A stretch of DNA of 32,000 nt from Candidatus Saccharimonadota bacterium. Its GTDB lineage: Bacteria > Patescibacteriota > Saccharimonadia > Saccharimonadales > Saccharimonadaceae. The stretch is taken from positions 90,001-122,000 of the forward strand of contig DIRZ01000003.1 of assembly GCA_002421785.1 (NCBI GenBank). Direction: 5' to 3'. A program made the position numbers and the translations under genes. Under the pieces are notes generated by a model. It did not search any database and was not told where the DNA came from. It saw only the letters and a list, made by a program, of their open reading frames with translations. Positions 10,626-20,832 of this stretch are shown one piece after another (positions within the stretch are counted from its first letter, which is position 1; each line of letters opens with the position of its first letter).

Positions 10626-10710
10626 CACCATACGGTCCATGGCTTATCGACTCGCTCAGTAAGTGCGGCGCCCGGTATGCTACGTATCGCATACTGATGA
10701 TTGCGAAAAA

Positions 10711-10744
10711 TAAACTAGGGTCCGCGTTAGCGGACCCTAGTTTA
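10711..10744. terminator. Bidirectional intrinsic terminator: perfect 15 bp stem, 4 nt loop
   Basis: TAAACTAGGGTCCGC-gtta-GCGGACCCTAGTTTA lies between the convergent SDR gene (ends 10625) and fusA (ends 10754). On the minus strand the stem is followed by TTTTTCG, which serves fusA. On the plus strand the T run is shorter. Confidence 0.85.
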
Positions 10745-10753
10745 TCGTTAGTA

Positions 10754-12844
10754 CTACTTCGAGCGCTTTTCGATGATTTCCTGTGCCACGTTTGGTGGTA
10801 CTTCTTCGTAATGCGCAAGCTCCATCGTGCTTGCAGCGCGGCCTTGGCTCATACTGCGGATATCGCCGGTATAACCAAACATGTTTGCGAGTGGGACAAT
10901 CGCTTTCACAAGCTTCGCGCCACCCATCAGGTCTTCCATGGCATCGATACGTCCACGGCGGCTGTTAAGGTCACCGATGATGTCGCCCATGAACTCTTCT
11001 GGCGTAGTTACTTCAACATGCATAACAGGTTCGAGGATAATTGGCGTTGCACGCTTCACACCTTCACGCGCCGCAATACTACCAGCCAGTTTAAAGGCCA
11101 GTTCGCTTGAGTCAACATCGTGATAGCTACCGTCGTACAGTGTCGCTTTGACGTCGACTACTGGATAACCGGCAATCACACCGCCATACAATGTTTCAAC
11201 GATACCCTGCTCGACAGGCTTGCGGTATTCTTGTGGCACCACACCACCCTTAATCATGTCGACGAATTCAAAGCCCTTGCCCACTTCGTTCGGCTCGAAG
11301 CGTACCCATACGTCACCGTACTGGCCACGACCGCCGGATTGCTTGGCGTGTTTACCCTGAACTTCAGACGTGCCCTTAATGGTTTCACGGAAGGCAACCT
11401 GTGGCTCACCGACGTTCGCTTCGACGTTAAATTCACGCTTCATGCGGTCAATGAGGATTTCGAGGTGAAGCTCGCCCATACCAGACATAATCGTCTGACC
11501 GGTTTCGTCATCGGTGTGAACGCGGAAGGTTGGGTCTTCTTCGGCAAGTCGTTGCAGGGCGATACCCATTTTTTCCTGGTCAGCCTTCGTTTTAGGCTCA
11601 ACGGCGATAGAAACTGGAGGATCTGGGAATGTGATCGCTTCAAGCGCCATTGGGTGCGCAGGGTCTGTTAGTGTGTGCCCCGTGAATGTGCCCTTTAGCC
11701 CCACGACAGCAGCAATGTCGCCCGCACCAACTGAGTCGATATCTTCACGCTTGTCGGCGTGCATACGCACGATACGGCCAACGCGCTCTTTTTCGCCCGT
11801 TGTTGTGTTCAAAACATAGCTACCGGCGGTGAGTTTACCTGAGTACACACGCACAAAGATAAGCTTACCGACAAATGGGTCGGTCGCAAGCTTAAAGGCA
11901 AGCGCGGCCATTGGTTCTTTGTCATCTGGCTTGCGACTTACTTCATCGCCAGTTTTAGGGTTTTTGCCCCAAATGGCGTCGATGTCTAGTGGGCTTGGCA
12001 GGTAGTCAGCCATAAGGTCGAGAACCTTTTCGACAATCACGCCGCGGCCATCGCCACCAGTTACAAGGTAAAAGTCACCAGCAAGAACTCGCTTGCGAAG
12101 CGCAGCCTTTAGTTCGTCAATTGTGATCGAATCTTCGCCCTCATCGAAGAACTTCATCATCAGTTCTTCATCAGCTTCCACTGCGTTTTCAACCAGCAGG
12201 CTGCGTGCGTTTTTAGCTTTTTCGAGCATGTCTGCAGGAATTTCGCCAACGACAAGTTCGTGATCGGTGTAGTCAGTGTAGGTGTAGGCCTTCATATCAA
12301 TTAGGTCAACGACACCATTGATATCCTTTTCGAAGCCAATTGGCAGGTGAATTGGGAACGCCTGTTTGCTGAGGCGAGTACGGATACTTTCGAGGCTCTT
12401 GTAGAAGTCACCCCCGGTCTGGTTGATCTTGTTAACAAAACAAATACGTGGAACGCCGTACTTGTTGGCTTGGCGCCATACGGTTTCAGACTGAGCTTCA
12501 ACGCCCATCTTGCCGTCAAACACAGTGACAGCACCGTCAAGCACGCGAAGACTTCGCTCAACTTCGGCCGTGAAGTCAATGTGCCCCGGGGTGTCGATGA
12601 TGTTGATTTTGCAGCCCTTCCAGAAACAGGTTACGGCAGCGGAAGTAATGGTGATACCACGTTCTTTTTCTTGTGCCATCCAGTCAGTTGTTGCGCCGTC
12701 ACCGTCACCTCGAACTTCGCCGATCTTGTGATTGATACCAGTACGGTAGAGGATTCCTTCTGTCGTTGTTGTTTTACCGGCGTCGATGTGTGCGATAATA
12801 CCGACGTTACGGAAGTCCTTTAGCGGGACATTTGTTACTGCCAT
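10754..12844 (-). CDS. fusA: Translation elongation factor G
   Basis: 696 aa with [29 protein letters not shown]-type G motifs and full EF-G domain architecture. AGGAG lies 4 nt upstream of the ATG. Confidence 0.98.
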
Positions 12845-12890
12845 ATGGCTCCTGCTCTCTTTCGTTTTATAGATAATTATTATTTGCCAG

Positions 12891-12911
12891 GTTTTCTAGG
12901 CATTAGAAAAC
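12891..12911 (-). promoter_or_regulatory. Perfect 8 bp inverted repeat in the fusA 5' untranslated region
   Basis: GTTTTCTA-ggcat-TAGAAAAC lies between the candidate fusA promoter (12926-12934) and the fusA SD/ATG. Its function is unknown; it could be an RNA hairpin or an operator. Confidence 0.5.
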
Positions 12912-12925
12912 AGCACTTAGGTCGA

Positions 12926-12934
12926 AGTATAGCA
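12926..12934 (-). promoter_or_regulatory. Extended -10 promoter element TGcTATACT upstream of fusA
   Basis: The minus strand reads TGCTATACT about 80 nt upstream of the fusA ATG, in the 125 nt gap after cassette gene D. The -35 is weak (TAGTAA at 17 nt). Confidence 0.5.
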
Positions 12935-12969
12935 CATTTCGTAGCTATTTACTAGGAATAGACTGCAGG

Positions 12970-13548
12970 CTATTCGCCTGGCTGGAGCCGTTTCGATATC
13001 TCAACGGTTGGGTCGGATATGGAAACGACAATATATGGTGAGCTGATGTCATGTGGGTCGAACCCATCAATCTCAAGTCGCGGATCGGTCAAGATAAGCG
13101 CTATATCGTACTCATCGTCGTTGATGCCTCTTCCCCCAACCATCGCATCAAAAGACGGCATCGGTGCGATAGCAACGTGGTTGAATGTGCCGACGACCCA
13201 CTCACCTTCGACAACGTTCTCGCAGGCGATTCCTGACTCAGTAACATAGAAGGTAAATGCACCCTCGCCGACAACAACAGTATCACCTGAAGTCAACTCA
13301 GAAAGCCTCGGTACATCCGCTCGGTTGAGCATCACCTCGATGAATTGGTAGTCCTCGGGCCGAAGAGGAACTCCTGGCTCTGCCTCAAGAGAAGCCTTCA
13401 CGTGGTCATTAAACGCGCCACGAAGTAGCTTCATGTCATCGCCCAGCGACACGGCAATATGTTCACCCCGGGTATCAATCCCAAGTTCTTCTGAAAGACC
13501 GCCGACTATTTCAAAAAACGAATTGTCATCTGGTATGTGCTCACGCAT
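12970..13548 (-). CDS. Hypothetical acidic protein D (192 aa) of the rpsG-fusA cassette
   Basis: Long ORF on the same strand as its neighbours. ATG 13548 lies 1 nt after the stop of gene C (TAAtATG). The tracked TTG start at 13569 would overlap C. It shares an N-terminal peptide and module motifs with B and C. No known family was recognised. Confidence 0.75.
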   Translation of the reverse strand: MREHIPDDNSFFEIVGGLSEELGIDTRGEHIAVSLGDDMKLLRGAFNDHVKASLEAEPGVPLRPEDYQFIEVMLNRADVPRLSELTSGDTVVVGEGAFTFYVTESGIACENVVEGEWVVGTFNHVAIAPMPSFDAMVGGRGINDDEYDIALILTDPRLEIDGFDPHDISSPYIVVSISDPTVEISKRLQPGE

Positions 13549-13549
13549 A

Positions 13550-15781
13550 TTAAAACGCCATCTCCTCAAGCGTGCTTAGTGGTACGACATATCGTGCAAC
13601 GACATCGTTTCGCTCCGGTGTAGGCACACGCATGACAAGGGCAATCTCGCTGGTCTTTAGGAACGGGTGCTCAGTGACGACGCCATCGAGAGTCGCAAGG
13701 ATCTCCTGGCCGAGGATGTGCTTAGCGGAATCATCAATAAATGGCCCCGCGATTCGGAGTGTGCGTCCTGCGCCCAAAATCGCCTCGAGCGCATCAGCTG
13801 CCACGTCCATAGCACTGGGATTATCGTGAAATGCAAGGGCGATATCACGAAGCCCCTCGACACCATCAAACTCAGTCATCTCTGTCTGAGGCTCGCTGTC
13901 GATTGCTCCCGCAAGATACTCGAGATTCTTTTGTAGCATTTGTCGCGAAGACTGCGCGATATCAAGTTTCGCGGTTCGGGCGAGCGCTTCGCTACGACGG
14001 GCGTCATAATCAAGACTCGGGAGAGAGTATCCCGCAGGAAGTCCGAGGTCAACAACGAACCGTCGCGCCGCGTTTATCGTCACCATAGATGCGTTAGTGT
14101 CAGGATCTGTAATCGTAATCGTATTATTCCCATGCCCGAGATCGATAAACTCAAGATACGCACGGATCACGTGTTGTTCATCATCCTCACCATAAGAGCG
14201 TGTTTGAACATTAGCCTCAGCGAGGATTCCCTTTGCACTGCTAAATACATCTGGGGAGCTTACGCCAAATCCCTTTACTTGTATATCAAGCGTCTGTGAC
14301 TCTTGATCGATCACACGACTAAAGGTAGCCTCGGGAATCCTTAGCGCTGGGCCAATGACCTCGATAACAGGGTTCATGTCCGTTTGCCACCGTTGAAAGA
14401 ACGCTGAAATTCGATAATTGATCATCTCGTAGTCGTCTGCAATCGCCGCCTTGCTCGGATACGGTCGCTCGGCCTCACTTGAGGCATATTGGCGAACTAT
14501 TTCATGTAGTCCATGCAACTCAGCGAGGAACTGTCGCTGCCTCTCTTTTTCATCCTCGGGTATATCCTGTTCACCATCTCTGTCACTCGCCTCATCTGCG
14601 TGCTCGACGCTGGTCATTGAAGCTGCGTCTATCACTGCCTCACCTAGCCGTTGTTCAAGTGGTCGCACTCCAAAATTGCTGTCGAACTGCTCATTTGGCT
14701 GAATAATCGTATCTTCATCAAATGGATACGCACTCGTCTCCGGACGGTTAGCCGTCAGCCGTGTGAGGCTATCGATAGGGATATATATTGGGGTACGTCC
14801 ACCTTGCGCCTCTGGTACGAGGTACCACGTCTCGAGCGTGGGACGGTAAGTGATGAGCGTTTGACCTTCTGCTGTATCAGGCGTCGGAAAAAGACGTACA
14901 TTGCTAATGAGCAGCTCACGGAGCGTTCCATCATATTCTTTGGGCACTTTCGCATATGTCATCGTACGTCCATAGATGACACCTCGAACGACTGCGTCGT
15001 AAGTTGCATTGTCAAATGCGAGTCGATCGGTGATATACGTTTCAATCAGGTCGAGCACTTCATCGTCACCCATTGTCGTGTCAGCTTTTGACACATCAAA
15101 TGTCACGCTAAAGTCATCGAGAAGTTGACGGATAAGCTCAGGATCACGGCAGCCATCTGGCAACGCCTGAACTGCAGCGAATACTTCGGGGAAATTGGCG
15201 CGCACAAACTCCTCAGCACCTTCACGAGAGGGTTGGTGTGGCTCCATATACTCGATGTCGTCGGGGCGACTCGTGAACCACACTTGTCCATCCTCGTAGT
15301 CTTCGTCGAGACCATATTGCATCACGACGCGGTACATTGATCCATACTCACCCATTGGAACTCTCTCGACGTCAAAGCCTTTGACGATCGCCCGGAACCC
15401 TGCCGCATCAAAATATTCTCCGAGAAGATCTTCTTTGCGCTCGCCGATTCCAGGAAATGCGCCTTCATGGGCGTCGTCAACAACATTCTCATCGAGCGCG
15501 TATTCAGTTGGTCGGAGTCGTCCGGTTACCTTGATTGCTTCGTCGCGAAATCCAAGCATATCCCAATCACCGTTGAGATTGAGGAGTACTTCTTGGATGG
15601 TGTCTTCTGACGGGTTAGTCGCAAAATTCAGTGCGTCTTCGGCGCTTTTTGCATCGTGTATAAGACGGAGGATGCCCGGGTCAATCGTGTCACGAAGACT
15701 CGGTTCGGTCTCCCATGTGTTTTTGATGAGCGCATCAAATGCATCGTCATCGTTAGAGTGTGGCTGTGACTCTCGTATCAT
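13550..15781 (-). CDS. Hypothetical acidic multi-module protein C (743 aa) of the rpsG-fusA cassette
   Basis: An uninterrupted 2.2 kb ORF; the only competing ORFs are short antisense ones. It has no TM or signal sequence, is rich in D/E, and shows repeated sequence patterns shared with B and D. No known family was recognised. Confidence 0.8.
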   Translation of the reverse strand: MIRESQPHSNDDDAFDALIKNTWETEPSLRDTIDPGILRLIHDAKSAEDALNFATNPSEDTIQEVLLNLNGDWDMLGFRDEAIKVTGRLRPTEYALDENVVDDAHEGAFPGIGERKEDLLGEYFDAAGFRAIVKGFDVERVPMGEYGSMYRVVMQYGLDEDYEDGQVWFTSRPDDIEYMEPHQPSREGAEEFVRANFPEVFAAVQALPDGCRDPELIRQLLDDFSVTFDVSKADTTMGDDEVLDLIETYITDRLAFDNATYDAVVRGVIYGRTMTYAKVPKEYDGTLRELLISNVRLFPTPDTAEGQTLITYRPTLETWYLVPEAQGGRTPIYIPIDSLTRLTANRPETSAYPFDEDTIIQPNEQFDSNFGVRPLEQRLGEAVIDAASMTSVEHADEASDRDGEQDIPEDEKERQRQFLAELHGLHEIVRQYASSEAERPYPSKAAIADDYEMINYRISAFFQRWQTDMNPVIEVIGPALRIPEATFSRVIDQESQTLDIQVKGFGVSSPDVFSSAKGILAEANVQTRSYGEDDEQHVIRAYLEFIDLGHGNNTITITDPDTNASMVTINAARRFVVDLGLPAGYSLPSLDYDARRSEALARTAKLDIAQSSRQMLQKNLEYLAGAIDSEPQTEMTEFDGVEGLRDIALAFHDNPSAMDVAADALEAILGAGRTLRIAGPFIDDSAKHILGQEILATLDGVVTEHPFLKTSEIALVMRVPTPERNDVVARYVVPLSTLEEMAF

Positions 15782-15787
15782 GAACTA

Positions 15788-15821
15788 ATTAAATAGAGAT
15801 GCGCCCCTGTTTGCAAGCATA
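15788..15821 (-). promoter_or_regulatory. Promoter-like element with conserved 11-mer upstream of gene C (TATGCTTGCAA; TTGCAA, 17 nt, TTTAAT, 6 nt, ATG)
   Basis: The minus strand reads TAG-cgctTATGCTTGCAAacaggggcgcatctctaTTTAATtagttcATG. There is no Shine-Dalgarno. The same 11-mer occurs upstream of gene B. Confidence 0.5.
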
Positions 15822-15825
15822 AGCG

Positions 15826-16815
15826 CTAGAATTGTGGTGGCGTCGGTGTATCATATCGCGCTGAACTCATCCAGGCGATTGATGTACAGGGAATGATAAG
15901 TTCTCGCTCAGAGCCATTTGGTTCATACGCAGTCGCTTCGATAAACGGTACACAGCGGTGCGTGCCCTTCAGTTCCTGCGCGCGAATATCAGACGGACGC
16001 AATTCGACGTCTTTGACCCTCATCGTCCGTGTGTACGGATAGCGCAAAACCACAGGAATACCATCGCCGTTATCTTTGACGGAGATACACTCGCCCGCAA
16101 CTGAGATATGGTAATTGACATGCGGATCGATTTCCGCGCGTGAACGAAGATATTGTGCCGCATCGCGGACGTGCTCAAGTTGTTCTTCGTCACTCAAGTT
16201 TGCTTCAAAGACAAACTCACCGAAATCTTTGATAATCTGATCGTCGCGACGGCTGGTAAATGCAAGTTCATCAATAGTATTTGCATCCTCCGGGTAATAA
16301 TACGCGAATCGACGCTCTCGTAGCTCGGGGGACGGAAATGGTAGCTCGATACCTGCGAGTTCCTCAAGGGGGAGAACAATAGGCATCCGAGTGCCATCAC
16401 CTTTTCCGGCGTCTATTTCCACAAGATGCGATATTTTCGGGAAATGATCATTTGATTGCTCGGTCGAATCAGTGAAAAATATGAAACCGCGAGAAATTGC
16501 TTCTTGATCAACGTACGTCGAGGACTGCATTTCGGGTAATCCTGGGACTACCGCCCAACCACGGCCGCTGACTGTCACGGGCATATTCATATATCGCCAC
16601 CTCGCATCGAGCTGCTGTACATGAGCCTGTCGGATCGAAAGAGGGTCGATCTCGGTGTCGGTGAGCATCGATGTTGCTACTATCTCTTGACGAGAGAGTG
16701 CTTCACTGTGTATTTCTTCTAGATATGGATCACCAAGCTGTGGCTCTAGTCCATCGGTCATCTCGCGAAATATATCGTCAAAGTCTGGATGCTTACTGCT
16801 TGGTATCTCGCTCAT
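15826..16815 (-). CDS. Hypothetical acidic two-module protein B (329 aa) of the rpsG-fusA cassette
   Basis: Long ORF on the same strand. Two internally similar halves are visible: NMPVTVSG...GDGTRMPIVLPLEEL and NYHISVAG...NGSERELIIPCTSI. The N-terminal peptide is similar to that of D. No known family was recognised. Confidence 0.8.
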   Translation of the reverse strand: MSEIPSSKHPDFDDIFREMTDGLEPQLGDPYLEEIHSEALSRQEIVATSMLTDTEIDPLSIRQAHVQQLDARWRYMNMPVTVSGRGWAVVPGLPEMQSSTYVDQEAISRGFIFFTDSTEQSNDHFPKISHLVEIDAGKGDGTRMPIVLPLEELAGIELPFPSPELRERRFAYYYPEDANTIDELAFTSRRDDQIIKDFGEFVFEANLSDEEQLEHVRDAAQYLRSRAEIDPHVNYHISVAGECISVKDNGDGIPVVLRYPYTRTMRVKDVELRPSDIRAQELKGTHRCVPFIEATAYEPNGSERELIIPCTSIAWMSSARYDTPTPPQF

Positions 16816-16823
16816 AGATTACT

Positions 16824-16858
16824 ATTTAACCCCACCGTGGCTTCTCGTTGCAAGCATA
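16824..16858 (-). promoter_or_regulatory. Promoter-like element with conserved 11-mer upstream of gene B (TATGCTTGCAA; TTGCAA, 18 nt, TTAAAT, 8 nt, ATG)
   Basis: The minus strand reads TGA-tactaccTATGCTTGCAAcgagaagccacggtggggTTAAATagtaatctATG. There is no Shine-Dalgarno. Confidence 0.5.
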
Positions 16859-16865
16859 GGTAGTA

Positions 16866-17603
16866 TCAGGCGGCTGTTCTGCTATCTATCTCACGTGTCG
16901 GAAAATGCGTCGTTAAATCCGTCATCTGATAGTGCATGATCGGCTGGAGCCACCTGGCAACATCGGTGGCACTATCAAGATCACCCGTATACTCAAGCCT
17001 TAGTGCCTCAAGCGCATGCATCCCAACAACTGCTCTTGTCGACTTTCGGTACGCTCGTCTTAATCGCGCTTCGTCATGCCGATCGGTTATCTCCACAAGT
17101 CGCTCTGCATCGCGTGCAAGTCGCGTCAGCGCTCGATACCCTCTCACGTAACGCTCCATTGGCTCAATACGAGGTACAGTTGTTTCATGGGTGACTTCGT
17201 GGTGTAGGTGGTGAAGCTGTGGTGGTAATATCACCATCTGTGTCCTGAGCTCACGAAATACGAGGGGGATATGAGCGAGCGCCCCCGCATGTTCAAAGTG
17301 GGCGGGATCGTACGCATCCCGTGGCCAATGGACATGATGTCGGTTTGGTGTCGCAGGGTGATTTGATCGTGTCGTCACCACTGGCCATTCGTAGGAATCA
17401 TCGATGAAGCGTTCGACTACCTTTTCCGCAGTCTGACGCGCGAGAACAAACCCCCGGTCATCCGTCACAGGGGCAATACGTCGAAGATGACGTGGATTTA
17501 TTTTCCATACATCAAGTGGAGGCAGATGACCCTCCGGTCCAAACTGACGACTATGCATGTATGTATCGTAACGGATTGTCATCGAATTCGCTACAAAAAA
17601 CAT
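16866..17603 (-). CDS. Hypothetical His-rich protein A (245 aa, or 238 aa from Met8) of the rpsG-fusA cassette
   Basis: ORF on the same strand, 47 nt downstream of rpsG. It contains NRHHVHWPRDAY...FEH...AHIP...PPQLHHLHHEVTHE, which includes an HExxH string. The protein is basic and Arg-rich, unlike B, C and D. The start is ambiguous (ATG 17603 or ATG 17582). Confidence 0.7.
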   Translation of the reverse strand: MFFVANSMTIRYDTYMHSRQFGPEGHLPPLDVWKINPRHLRRIAPVTDDRGFVLARQTAEKVVERFIDDSYEWPVVTTRSNHPATPNRHHVHWPRDAYDPAHFEHAGALAHIPLVFRELRTQMVILPPQLHHLHHEVTHETTVPRIEPMERYVRGYRALTRLARDAERLVEITDRHDEARLRRAYRKSTRAVVGMHALEALRLEYTGDLDSATDVARWLQPIMHYQMTDLTTHFPTREIDSRTAA

Positions 17604-17650
17604 ATCGCCTGCAATTATGCGGGCGATATGTCATGGACGCGGATAGAGAA

Positions 17651-18130
17651 TTAGCCGCGGGCGAAGTGAGCAAACGCGCGGTTGGCTTCTGCCATTTTGT
17701 GGGTATCTTCTTTCTTTTTGAAAGCAGCCCCGGTTTCGTTGTAGGCGTCAACAATTTCAAGCGCAAGGCGTTTTTCATAAGGAATTCCGCTACGGTTTCG
17801 TGCGCTCTGAACGAGCCAGCTAAATGCGTAGTGAAGTTGGCGATGACCGGCAACTGGGAACGGAATCTGGTAGTTTGCGCCACCAACACGACGAGACTTA
17901 ACCTCGAAGTTTGGCGATACATTCCTGAGTGCTTTTTCGAAGACTTCGAGAGGCTCTTCGCTCTTGAGCGTTTTTGCTGCCTGCTCAAGTGCGCTATAGA
18001 CGGCACGCTCTGCAACAAGTTTCTTACCATCAAGCATGCTCTTGTTGATCAAACGCTGCACAAGAACGCTCTGGTACTTGCGATCGGGCTTAATGTTTCG
18101 TTGTAATTTCTTGGTAACTTTCCTAGGCAT
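17651..18130 (-). CDS. rpsG: 30S ribosomal protein S7
   Basis: 159 aa, MPRK...DRKYQSVLVQRLINKSMLDGKK...ANYQIP, typical of uS7. It starts 2 nt after the rpsL stop. Confidence 0.98.
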   Translation of the reverse strand: MPRKVTKKLQRNIKPDRKYQSVLVQRLINKSMLDGKKLVAERAVYSALEQAAKTLKSEEPLEVFEKALRNVSPNFEVKSRRVGGANYQIPFPVAGHRQLHYAFSWLVQSARNRSGIPYEKRLALEIVDAYNETGAAFKKKEDTHKMAEANRAFAHFARG

Positions 18131-18793: not shown

Positions 18794-19813
18794 ATGGACA
18801 ACCAACCAACTACTACAGACTCTGGTAATCATACCTCAAATAACCCGAATACTGGCTCGCCAACAGTGATCACAGCCAGTCCAGGCGGTGATGAGTCACG
18901 CACGTCGGCCGCCCTCGTCGCCGAAAAGAAAAAGCGGCGTTCGCGACCACTGCTCGTAGTACTCCTTGCGCTGCTCATCGCGGTGCTTGGGGGGGTTGCT
19001 ACAATGGCAGTATATACGTTGTATTTTGATACTTCTCATGTAAAGCAGACGTCTCAACCCTCTCAGGTAATAGCCGAGCGAGGACTCTCCGCTTCGGACG
19101 TAATTAGTAGCCTACAGCAAAACATGACTGGCACCACTGTGCCCGAAAGAGCACCTAATCCACCCGCTGTGAAAATTGCGGGGAAGGCATTCTATACACA
19201 ACTTCAGGCAGCGAACAACCTCGTTGCCAGTCGATCCGAAACAGTTACCAGTGCGCAAGCAGATGTCGAGCGCGTGAATCTACTTAAGCTGCTAAAGGAC
19301 CAGGGCTTTGAGGAGAAGAAGATTGCCCCGGACGATACAGAGGTTATCTACCTAGGCGAACTGACCCACAAAGACGTCGTATGCACTTTACAGCAGACTC
19401 GAACGTTAAACAATTCTGCCGCAGATCACCTTATTAGTGTGGCTTGCGCCAATATGATTGACTATACAAAACTCGCAGGTGTGCAGCAGCCTTTCATGAC
19501 CGCTTTTGGAACCGGTGGCTCGGTCTCTATACAGCAAATCACTGCGATAGGAGCACCGACAATTGTCGCATCGTCGACGAAGGGGTATCAAACAGCTGAG
19601 TTACCGCTGATGGGCTATGCTGACGATGGAATGCCCGCCTCGAACGGCTCTATGGCGTTATTTTATCAAACACCCGACCAAACGTGGCACTTCTTCAAGG
19701 CCGCACAAAGTATCGTGCCATGCAGCGAGTACAACTCGGTAGACCTCAAAAAGGCGTACTCGGGCGGTCGCTGTATGGCGCCGAATAATCAAGAGCTTAA
19801 GGTGTCGTTATAA
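18794..19813 (+). CDS. Membrane-anchored protein, paralog 1 (disordered N-terminus, one TM helix, about 260 aa Cys-containing ectodomain)
   Basis: AAGGAG lies 5 nt upstream of the ATG. A KKKRRSR stretch is followed by the hydrophobic segment PLLVVLLALLIAVLGGVATMAVYTLYF. It is clearly similar to the downstream gene, with 4 conserved Cys. No known family was recognised. Confidence 0.85.
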   Translation: MDNQPTTTDSGNHTSNNPNTGSPTVITASPGGDESRTSAALVAEKKKRRSRPLLVVLLALLIAVLGGVATMAVYTLYFDTSHVKQTSQPSQVIAERGLSASDVISSLQQNMTGTTVPERAPNPPAVKIAGKAFYTQLQAANNLVASRSETVTSAQADVERVNLLKLLKDQGFEEKKIAPDDTEVIYLGELTHKDVVCTLQQTRTLNNSAADHLISVACANMIDYTKLAGVQQPFMTAFGTGGSVSIQQITAIGAPTIVASSTKGYQTAELPLMGYADDGMPASNGSMALFYQTPDQTWHFFKAAQSIVPCSEYNSVDLKKAYSGGRCMAPNNQELKVSL

Positions 19814-19815
19814 TT

Positions 19816-20832
19816 ATGCAGCCACAAAATAGCACTCCGCAGCCACCGCTGGGCGAACCCGGCGCCCAGCCCGCCCCCGTCGTGCCAGCAAGCGAAGTTC
19901 ACGACTACCTTCACCCGATTATTGATCAACCAAAACGGACGTATCATCCAAAGGCCTTTCGCACGATACTTATTGTCTTAGTAGTACTTTCGCTTCTTGG
20001 AGTGGGGCTAGCGTTGCTAGCCGCTTACTTGCCTACTGTTTCTGGGCGCACCGCCAAAGAGACGAGTAATAAACCGACCACAACGCTCACAAAAGCGCTC
20101 TCTGCTTCTGAGGCTGTTGCGCGAATGAAAGAGGTATTCCCTGGGACCCTTCCCATCTCGCATAACATTTCGACGCCTGTTAAATTGGAAGGTAACGACT
20201 TCTACACCGTTGTAGCTGACGTCGCACCAGTCGCTGGCCTTGCCGATAATATAGAGTCGTCAAAGGTAATGCCGCTCATTACTAAGCTCGACACGTCGCT
20301 GACGAGCTACGGCATGACCGCCAACGTTATTTCGGACGGAACAGGTGCGGCGAGCTACCAGGCTGATTATTCCCACCCAGACGTACTGTGCCAGATCACT
20401 ACCACAAGAAGCGCTGACTCAAATGCCCCACAGCTGCTTGAGGCGAAATGTCTTGATATTGAAGCCTACCTAGAGGTTGCTTCGACGCAACGACCATTCT
20501 ACAACGTCTATAGCCCCGCCCAAGCGACCAGTAGTGAAGTTGCATTCACCGGAAAGCCCGAAGTGAAAGCAAGTGCTACACCGGGCTATCAGCTCGCTGA
20601 GCTGCCCGTCAGTAGCATTGCTAATGGCCAGATCGTCTCTGCGAGCGTCCGGGCGATGTTCTACCAACCGCCCAGTGGAATCTGGTACTACTTCAAGGAT
20701 CGTGCTCAAAAACTTATCGAATGCGAGCAGTATAATACAGATGTCCTCAAAAACGCGTATGTTGGCCAGCCATGCCGTAGCCTCTCGAAAGACATCGATA
20801 CGACTGTTCCAGCAGTAAAAAAGAAGTCTTAG
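19816..20832 (+). CDS. Membrane-anchored protein, paralog 2
   Basis: It starts 2 nt after the paralog 1 stop. TM segment ILIVLVVLSLLGVGLALLAAYL. Blocks alignable with paralog 1: LSAS.., H.DV.C....TR, GYQ.AELP, FYQ.P...W..FK, .CE.YN...LK.AY.G..C. Confidence 0.85.
   Translation: MQPQNSTPQPPLGEPGAQPAPVVPASEVHDYLHPIIDQPKRTYHPKAFRTILIVLVVLSLLGVGLALLAAYLPTVSGRTAKETSNKPTTTLTKALSASEAVARMKEVFPGTLPISHNISTPVKLEGNDFYTVVADVAPVAGLADNIESSKVMPLITKLDTSLTSYGMTANVISDGTGAASYQADYSHPDVLCQITTTRSADSNAPQLLEAKCLDIEAYLEVASTQRPFYNVYSPAQATSSEVAFTGKPEVKASATPGYQLAELPVSSIANGQIVSASVRAMFYQPPSGIWYYFKDRAQKLIECEQYNTDVLKNAYVGQPCRSLSKDIDTTVPAVKKKS

Follow-up and report, generated by a model that had tools for sequence, protein, structure and literature searches.

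The gene order rpsL-rpsG-fusA is among the most conserved in bacteria, yet one clade keeps orphan genes exactly there. What are these genes, and how are they maintained at such a site? We addressed this question in a 32,000-nt stretch of DNA from a Saccharibacterium (TM7) (contig DIRZ01000003.1, positions 90,001 to 122,000; hereafter the window). The six-frame list of its open reading frames (ORFs) places about 4.8 kb between rpsG and fusA on the minus strand, with rpsL, rpoC and rpoB upstream of rpsG on the same strand. This interval holds four genes, A, B, C and D, which we call the cassette; W denotes the window's own allele, and L-numbers denote comparison loci from other contigs. Comparison across loci reveals a resident, clade-wide, single-locus, constrained and recombination-exchanged cassette of new protein families. 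As to its role, we see an evenly balanced case for a Saccharibacteria-specific cassette at one fixed locus, exchanged by recombination and probably engaged in antagonistic interaction.

The cassette is replaced as a block on near-identical backbones

From rpoC to the last base of rpsG, the DNA of L006, L024 and L026 is 96.5-97.8% identical to that of W (97.4-97.8% for L006 and L024). S12 and S7 are 100% identical in these comparisons, EF-G is 99% identical, and the two neighbouring membrane proteins are 98% identical. In the same pairs, the cassette proteins A, B, C and D are only 25, 29, 42 and 28% identical, respectively. When L006, L021-L024, L026 and L028 are aligned to the window with blastn, similarity stops at 17650 and returns at 12836 in all seven contigs, which puts the breakpoints at the rpsG stop codon and 8 nt into fusA. 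Flank identity in these contigs is 78-98% upstream and 89-95% downstream, and no aligned segment of at least 100 nt lies between the breakpoints. What is replaced is therefore the stretch from the rpsG terminator through A-D to the promoter and leader of fusA.

Among contigs whose S7 is identical, the cassette comes in at least three versions. EF-G and C are also discordant elsewhere: relative to W, they are 99% and 39% identical in L022, and 92% and 57% identical in L007. Judging from these alignments, recombination must have exchanged the entire block among near-identical genomes. C itself is mosaic: the differences between the C genes of L007 and L009 are packed into codons 351-600, with about as many synonymous as non-synonymous changes, a pattern that looks like an imported segment. 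The shared site, deep alleles, breakpoints in the flanks and evidence of constraint place this block in the class of fixed-locus, recombination-exchanged cassettes.

The cassette occupies one position across the clade

Every C-family member that can be placed (more than 20 loci with usable flanks) sits between rpsG and fusA. These loci cover close, oral-type relatives (L005-L014 and L019-L028), metagenome-assembled genomes (MAGs) of Ca. Saccharimonas aalborgensis (L015 and L016), and L017, L018 and L029-L031, which were recognised by C-profile matches at E values of 1e-5 to 1e-20. Identity of C to the W protein ranges from 92% down to 23% across loci, and EF-G remains 84-99% identical to that of W while C drops to 23-27%. 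A contig scan based on two short peptide patterns found one locus, a result that is not an estimate of prevalence. The cassette is not universal: in the cultivated Saccharibacterium Southlakia epibionticum ML1, the genes for EF-G (SEML1_0485) and S7 (SEML1_0486) are consecutive and lie 466 nt apart with no gene between them (PMC10633639, supplement).

The position is fixed and the content varies, with two to five genes per cassette across the clade. W carries A-B-C-D, L008 X-A-B-C-D, L029 B-C-C'-D-D' and L031 C'-C-D. L017 has a 254-aa protein and C, and L018 has two proteins that resemble the C-terminal half of C. In the S. aalborgensis MAGs, a trypsin-like protein anchored by a transmembrane (TM) helix and a reverse-strand gene replace A and B; L015 keeps C and a 221-aa acidic protein.

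The initial annotation of this DNA described the cassette as splitting the str operon. It does separate rpsG from fusA, but the surprise was overstated, since this lineage also has other genes between fusA and tuf: tuf does not adjoin fusA in the window, and related genomes carry it 0.7-5.7 kb beyond fusA with other genes in between.

Genes A-D are intact, constrained and compositionally resident

All four ORFs have full-length homologues in other genomes. Among close oral-type loci, the ratio of non-synonymous to synonymous substitution rates (dN/dS) is 0.04-0.12 for A, 0.04-0.14 for B, 0.05-0.22 for C and 0.13-0.34 for D, and 0.02 or less for EF-G; between the C of W and the 92%-identical allele in L032 it is 0.09. 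A-D are thus not chance ORFs but real genes under purifying selection (dN/dS 0.04-0.34). One version of the contig is broken: a JGI draft copy (3300001592 Draft_10000049; L001/L019) shows seven gap openings and no mismatches against the window over 22 kb, and its indels break the calls of A (239 aa) and B (254 aa). These indels are likely homopolymer sequencing errors, which account for the broken calls. In every other independent assembly the four ORFs are uninterrupted.

GC content is about 0.50 throughout, and GC at third codon positions (GC3) is 0.46-0.52 in the cassette and 0.50-0.54 in its flanks, so the cassette shows no compositional shift. No integrase, transposase or recombinase is found among the window ORFs, and no flanking direct or inverted repeats, tRNAs or Rfam families are found at the cassette. 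Cassette relatives were not found in a scan of IMG/VR contigs, nor by tblastn in INPHARED (GenBank) phages with C or A or in PLSDB plasmids with C. The initial view of a resident module rather than a recent mobile insertion is thus supported, and the survey of the rpsG-fusA junction in relatives finds the cassette conserved and constrained.

The window coordinates and spacings of the four minus-strand ORFs are exactly those of the initial annotation. The gaps are 47 nt from rpsG to A, 50 from A to B, 44 from B to C, 1 from C to D and 125 from D to fusA, and the C/D junction reads TAAtATG. Its reading of B, C and D as strongly acidic is supported by their isoelectric points (pI), and its hand count for D (37 D/E against 12 K/R) was exact. 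For A, described as His-rich and basic, the histidines and the pI stand for W, but the protein is basic in this allele only, with orthologues at pI 6.5-6.9. We also confirmed that A-D lack a TM helix or signal peptide: the top Kyte-Doolittle mean over 19 residues is 0.88-1.12 in the four proteins, and the adjacent TM proteins reach 2.8-3.1. Without an N-terminal signal peptide or membrane anchor, A-D do not look like Sec-type secreted surface proteins.

Table 1. Coordinates of the cassette, its signals and its surroundings in the window (unprefixed) and in comparison loci (prefixed).
Feature	Coordinates	Strand	Description
rpsG	17651-18130	minus	
rpsL-rpsG intrinsic terminator	17595-17630	minus	predicted; 9-bp GC-containing stem CAUAUCGCC / GGCGAUAUG, then six U
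Gene A	16866-17603	minus	245 aa as annotated; pI 8.2; 19 His
Gene B	15826-16815	minus	329 aa; pI 4.6
Gene C	13550-15781	minus	743 aa; pI 4.3
Gene D	12970-13548	minus	192 aa; pI 4.2
fusA promoter	12926-12955	minus	predicted; -35-like CTAGTA (12950-12955); 18-nt spacer; -10 TATACT (12926-12931)
fusA leader element	12880-12903	minus	about 8 nt past the fusA -10; conserved AAG.GCT.TT... running into an ATG
fusA	10754-12844	minus	
Replaced block	12837-17649		rpsG terminator, A-D, fusA promoter and leader; bounded by blastn breakpoints
Inverted repeat	10710-10745		perfect, 16 nt, 4-nt loop; between the fusA stop and a convergent short-chain dehydrogenase gene
Membrane protein gene 1	18794-19813	plus	339 aa; single-pass
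Membrane protein gene 2	19816-20832	plus	338 aa; single-pass; paralogue of gene 1 (31% mutual identity)
Extra gene (X) of L008	L008:5568-6200		210 aa; between the rpsG terminator and A
Trypsin-like protein gene	L015:4408-6702		764 aa; N-terminal TM helix; trypsin-like domain (PF13365)
Reverse-strand gene	L015:6656-7810	reverse	384 aa

Predicted transcription signals set the cassette apart from rpsL-rpsG

The hairpin that follows rpsG in the window folds with -26 kcal/mol in RNAfold and overlaps the annotated start codon of A. A consensus terminator scanner missed it because its loop is longer than 8 nt. A GC-rich hairpin with a U-run lies directly 3' of the rpsG stop codon in eight of the nine loci folded (W, L005-L008, L015, L017 and L022), and its sequence differs among loci while the structure stays the same. 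By this predicted termination, the rpsL-rpsG unit ends before the cassette, and the cassette is a separate unit. The cassette is thus not expected to be part of the rpsL-rpsG transcript, and the earlier proposal that it rides on str-operon transcription lacks support.

The promoter-like element that the initial annotation had assigned to fusA fared better. Its spacer includes a TG at 12933-12934, and an extended -10 (TGnTAnnnT; TG[CG]TA...T) is found at the same distance from fusA in 12 of the 12 loci compared, distant ones included, consistent with a promoter of its own for fusA. Past D, a scan of the window detected no terminator-like site, and transcription of the cassette may therefore run on into fusA. 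No promoter of the cassette was picked up by the consensus scanner in the window; some relatives have a plausible promoter upstream of the cassette, such as TGCTACAAT in L008. This extended -10 lies only 8 nt before the ATG of the 210-aa extra gene of L008, whose transcript may thus be leaderless and whose product may be a local regulator. The protein has a sub-threshold winged-helix match (HTH_45, E = 6e-5), the only Pfam signal among 10 variant neighbour proteins.

Between the fusA promoter and fusA, the leader element is seen also in L005-L008, L015, L017, L021-L023, L030 and L031. Its ATG opens a mini-ORF of 4-8 codons in nearly every locus. It encodes MPRKPGK in W and MSRKPGK, MLKIS, MLKII, MLKI, MAKNSKNY, MAKNN or MLQNLT elsewhere, each followed by a stop codon. 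The mini-ORF may be a leader peptide or a 5' element that controls EF-G synthesis. A hairpin seen by eye in this leader gave no RNAalifold consensus, with alignment coordinates that were partly off, and no Rfam match. Downstream of fusA, the inverted repeat is probably a bidirectional terminator, and fusA is therefore monocistronic here and not followed by tuf.

B and C form one new family and D a second

A word-index search retrieved 24 full-length relatives of C, and an exhaustive profile search expanded the family to 126 clusters at 50% identity. Most members are 700-785 aa long, and some of about 330-370 aa match one half of C only. The alignment of the 24 sequences, which reach down to 40% identity, has 88 invariant columns, and the N-terminal half is the best-conserved part. 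An AlphaFold2 model of C built on this alignment has a mean predicted local distance difference test score (pLDDT) of 69.6 and a predicted template modelling score (pTM) of 0.38. It has four consecutive units, in each of which a beta-rich unit follows a helical segment, and residues 345-407 form a disordered acidic linker. Foldseek found no match to this model below E 0.05 in the PDB or BFVD, sequence and profile searches of the PDB with C gave nothing meaningful, and a Pfam scan of 69 distant C relatives gave no match. The small-barrel (SH3/Tudor-like) and helical-bundle matches that appeared in the Foldseek searches with the C and A models had low probability and were not interpreted. An internal duplication of C is without support, as its N- and C-terminal halves have no significant profile similarity.

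Using hhalign, we found that B is collinear with residues 4-353 of C over 294 columns (E = 0.002). The B profile also matches the N-terminal half of a 730-aa C paralogue in L029 (E = 1e-7) and other distant C proteins (E of 5e-4 to 2.8e-2). From these profile matches, B is a paralogue of C, a stand-alone copy of its N-terminal half. C, the full-length form, is the core of a new protein family whose members are strongly acidic, built of several units and devoid of signal peptides.

For D, the alignment of orthologue N-termini favours the ATG at 13548 over a TTG at 13569. Elsewhere the stop of C and the start of D share an ATGA, and in L007 the two genes overlap. D falls into two deeply separated types, D of 192-194 aa and D' of 225-227 aa. 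A direct comparison links them weakly (D of W against D of L005: 32% identity over 76 aa, E = 0.005). A joint profile of the two types, however, matches proteins of 201-250 aa in L029 and in L031 at E values of 3e-7 to 2e-15. By profile comparison, D and D' are connected through these intermediates and constitute a second acidic family. D and C profiles have no significant similarity to each other.

Searches of A-D against Pfam and NCBIfam gave no family match, including none to ribosomal-protein, S1/OB, GTPase or translation-factor profiles. Searches against PHROGs gave nothing below E 0.19, and searches against the PADLOC-DB models gave zero matches at E <= 1 and thus no known component of anti-phage defence. 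All homologues are named "hypothetical protein" in their sources or are nameless. The initial annotation had recognised no established family in the cassette, and Pfam, NCBIfam, PHROGs, PADLOC and PDB sequences indeed give none for A-D, just as Foldseek gives no fold match for the C model (PDB and BFVD) or for a model of an A orthologue (PDB). The observations that it had named as evidence against its own view were not made either: we found no homology to characterised families, no frameshifts, dN/dS far below 1 and, in literature searches, no prior description of an rpsG-fusA cassette. Three features had gone unremarked in it: the replacement of alleles, the paralogy of B and C, and the constant place of the family across a deep clade.

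Protein A keeps an invariant histidine motif

A conserves the motif SY.[GW]P..HH[LIV].WPR..Y ... FR ... VI[LI]P..LH..[LH]H..T, with invariant H89, H90, W93, P94, R95, H131 and H135 in W numbering. Outside the motif, the A of W is strongly diverged and is the outlier of its family, with 25-32% global identity to the other A proteins, which share 49-62% with one another. The annotated ATG (17603) falls in the 3' arm of the hairpin predicted to terminate rpsG, and two Phe codons of the annotated start are the T-run of that terminator; the real start is therefore probably M8 (17582) or M16 (17558). A is restricted to one subclade and is missing from the deeper-branching loci.

At E <= 10, a Pfam scan of six A proteins returned zero families, and phmmer and profile searches with A against PDB sequences returned zero matches. 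In the AlphaFold2 model of an A orthologue (P0200; 34 sequences), confidence is good only for the C-terminal helices, and pLDDT is below 50 over residues 64-117, the motif region; the best Foldseek match to the PDB has E 0.24. A match of the A model to FusB, an EF-G-binding protein (E = 3.4), was dismissed as noise. We take the HH...WPR...LH...H pattern of A to resemble the HH...N...H...H core of colicin-DNase/HNH nucleases, a lead without profile or fold backing. The likeness lies in the HH dipeptide, followed some 35-40 residues on by a helix-like L-H-x3-H motif, and in a small conserved core within an otherwise variable protein. In contrast to HNH/His-Me finger proteins, A offers no sequence-profile or fold evidence of such a domain, it has an invariant WPR that we do not recognise from HNH families, and conserved Asn or Cys pairs are not evident.

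A second set of genes separates rpoBC from rpsL

Between rpoC and rpsL lie the two divergently transcribed paralogous membrane-protein genes of Table 1, which separate rpoBC from rpsL. The pair is present in close relatives, and L015 and L016 have a single 329-aa gene at that position. The proteins have no Pfam domain on record, and those of W are 98% identical to their counterparts in L006 and L024 and 26-40% identical to those in L007 and L008.

How the cassette may be exchanged and what it may do

We propose that deeply diverged cassette alleles would be exchanged whole by homologous recombination, with crossovers in the highly conserved rpsG and fusA, which would serve as homology arms. 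Such exchange is plausible because Saccharibacteria are naturally competent and integrate DNA by double crossover with arms of about 1 kb (PMC10633639). Recombination in the rpsG and fusA flanks would also explain why the family is never seen elsewhere in the genome. Within the cassette, D would be translationally coupled to C; some lineages carry two C copies or split C halves. The persistence of the deep alleles on near-identical backbones suggests that an antagonist, which may be the epibiont's bacterial host or phages, imposes frequency-dependent or diversifying selection. B, C and D may form a polymorphic complex at the antagonist interface, with signal-independent export or intracellular action. 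A more specific version, which we hold to be distinctly doubtful, makes B, C and D a polymorphic apparatus or effector set of a new fold family that is delivered or displayed to actinobacterial hosts without a signal peptide, for example by their unusual essential type IV secretion system, and whose alleles set host range or compatibility at the strain level.

Several points weigh against this reading. Its functional part is drawn from the evolutionary pattern only, and no domain or fold indicates an interaction role. The dN/dS values are well below 1 and hence give no direct sign of positive selection. Fast evolution alone is not special, as between distant species the cassette has diverged no further than nearby lineage-specific genes: in W and L007 the membrane proteins are 26-38% identical and B, C and D 56-61%; what is exceptional is replacement on near-identical backbones. 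Those backbones with identical S7 may nevertheless be different species, because their downstream gene content differs. In addition, the closest pairs share only 90-95% identity on the fusA side, so the transfer may have been of various sizes and in either direction. Finally, with no cassette promoter found in the window, some read-through from rpsG into the cassette may occur.

Weighing other explanations

Could the cassette be an intracellular conflict system, with A as a nuclease effector of the His-Me finger type, B, C and D as its sensors or inhibitors, and phages driving the alleles? Strong acidity is a typical trait of nuclease inhibitors and DNA mimics, defence loci typically show replacement at the level of strains, and A keeps its invariant histidine motif through extreme divergence, with what we presume to be a resemblance to the colicin-DNase/HNH core. 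However, A has no PADLOC, Pfam or PDB-profile match even at E <= 10, its model is of low confidence in the motif region and has no fold match, and A is missing from many loci that keep C and D (L015, L017, L018, L029 and L031). Defence systems also tend to vary from genome to genome in whether and where they occur, while this family is always at one locus. We therefore regard a conflict system as unlikely. Lineage-specific translation factors that bind the ribosome, S7/S12 or EF-G, as entertained in the initial annotation, would explain the fixed position: even deeply diverged members are tied without exception to the rpsG-fusA junction, transcripts of the cassette may continue into fusA, given the lack of a terminator-like site between D and fusA, and the acidity is like that of some ribosome-binding proteins. 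Yet cassette identity is only 25-42% in genomes that share 99-100% of S7, S12 and EF-G, and a partner of invariant machinery is not expected to be so replaceable. The content varies (one or two C, A and B present or absent, a trypsin-like membrane protein in the S. aalborgensis MAGs), Southlakia epibionticum lacks the cassette altogether, a predicted terminator stands between rpsG and the cassette, and the family searches reveal no RNA-binding family, S1 and OB included. These points make a role in translation improbable.

The horizontal movement of the block between lineages, its variable content and its extra genes (the weak winged helix of L008, the protease of L015) would also suit a selfish or mobile insertion at a highly expressed site, such as an island, a degraded prophage or an integrative element. 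We consider this very improbable, because integrase, transposase, tRNA and flanking repeats are lacking, GC and GC3 equal those of the flanks, no homologues occur in IMG/VR, GenBank phages or PLSDB, no PHROG matches, and the family is never at another site. Moreover, the breakpoints lie at gene ends, as expected of homologous and not site-specific recombination. That A-D are decaying or unconstrained chance ORFs in a tolerant gap could be argued from homologues that are only hypothetical or nameless and from the JGI version of the contig, in which indels break A and B. The substitution pattern refutes this idea, as do the 88 invariant columns of C and the intact ORFs outside the JGI draft, whose gaps without mismatches look like sequencing error; its chance of being right is next to nil.

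The closest known counterparts are loci that keep one position and are exchanged through recombination in conserved flanks, such as the pneumococcal capsule locus (dexB-aliA), the enterobacterial O-antigen locus (galF-gnd) and the Clostridioides difficile S-layer cassette. Like them, the cassette described here is a multi-gene block at one fixed position with deeply diverged alleles that are swapped whole, with breakpoints at conserved flanks and with each allele under purifying selection. The products of those loci, however, are recognisable glycosyltransferases, transporters or secreted surface proteins that carry signal peptides, whereas A-D have no known domain, signal peptide or TM helix; a further difference is that the flanks here are core translation genes, and a surface location is only hypothetical. 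The locus shares with the canonical str operon (rpsL-rpsG-fusA-tufA) the order rpsL-rpsG...fusA on one strand downstream of rpoB-rpoC, but differs from it by the predicted terminator after rpsG, 4.8 kb of unrelated genes, and a fusA with its own predicted promoter and terminator. The mode of evolution thus has well-known analogues, while the A-D proteins match nothing known in the sequence, profile and fold libraries searched, and the site is unusual.

Significance

Saccharibacteria are tiny bacteria that live attached to other bacteria, and orphan genes are common in bacteria of the Candidate Phyla Radiation. Genome-reduced epibionts shed most dispensable DNA, yet they hold this cassette under purifying selection and trade divergent versions of it. 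Such a pattern usually marks molecules at the frontline of interaction, such as those for host recognition, phage resistance or discrimination of self from non-self. The cassette adds at least two new protein families (B/C and D), and for C no fold relatives were detected in the PDB or BFVD. Its exchange indicates that ultra-conserved housekeeping genes can act as universal homology arms for the transfer of cassettes between species. Because the determinants of the narrow host range of Saccharibacteria are largely unknown, the cassette is a concrete candidate for such a determinant, and one that is genetically testable, since transformation with arms of about 1 kb works in cultivated strains (PMC10633639).

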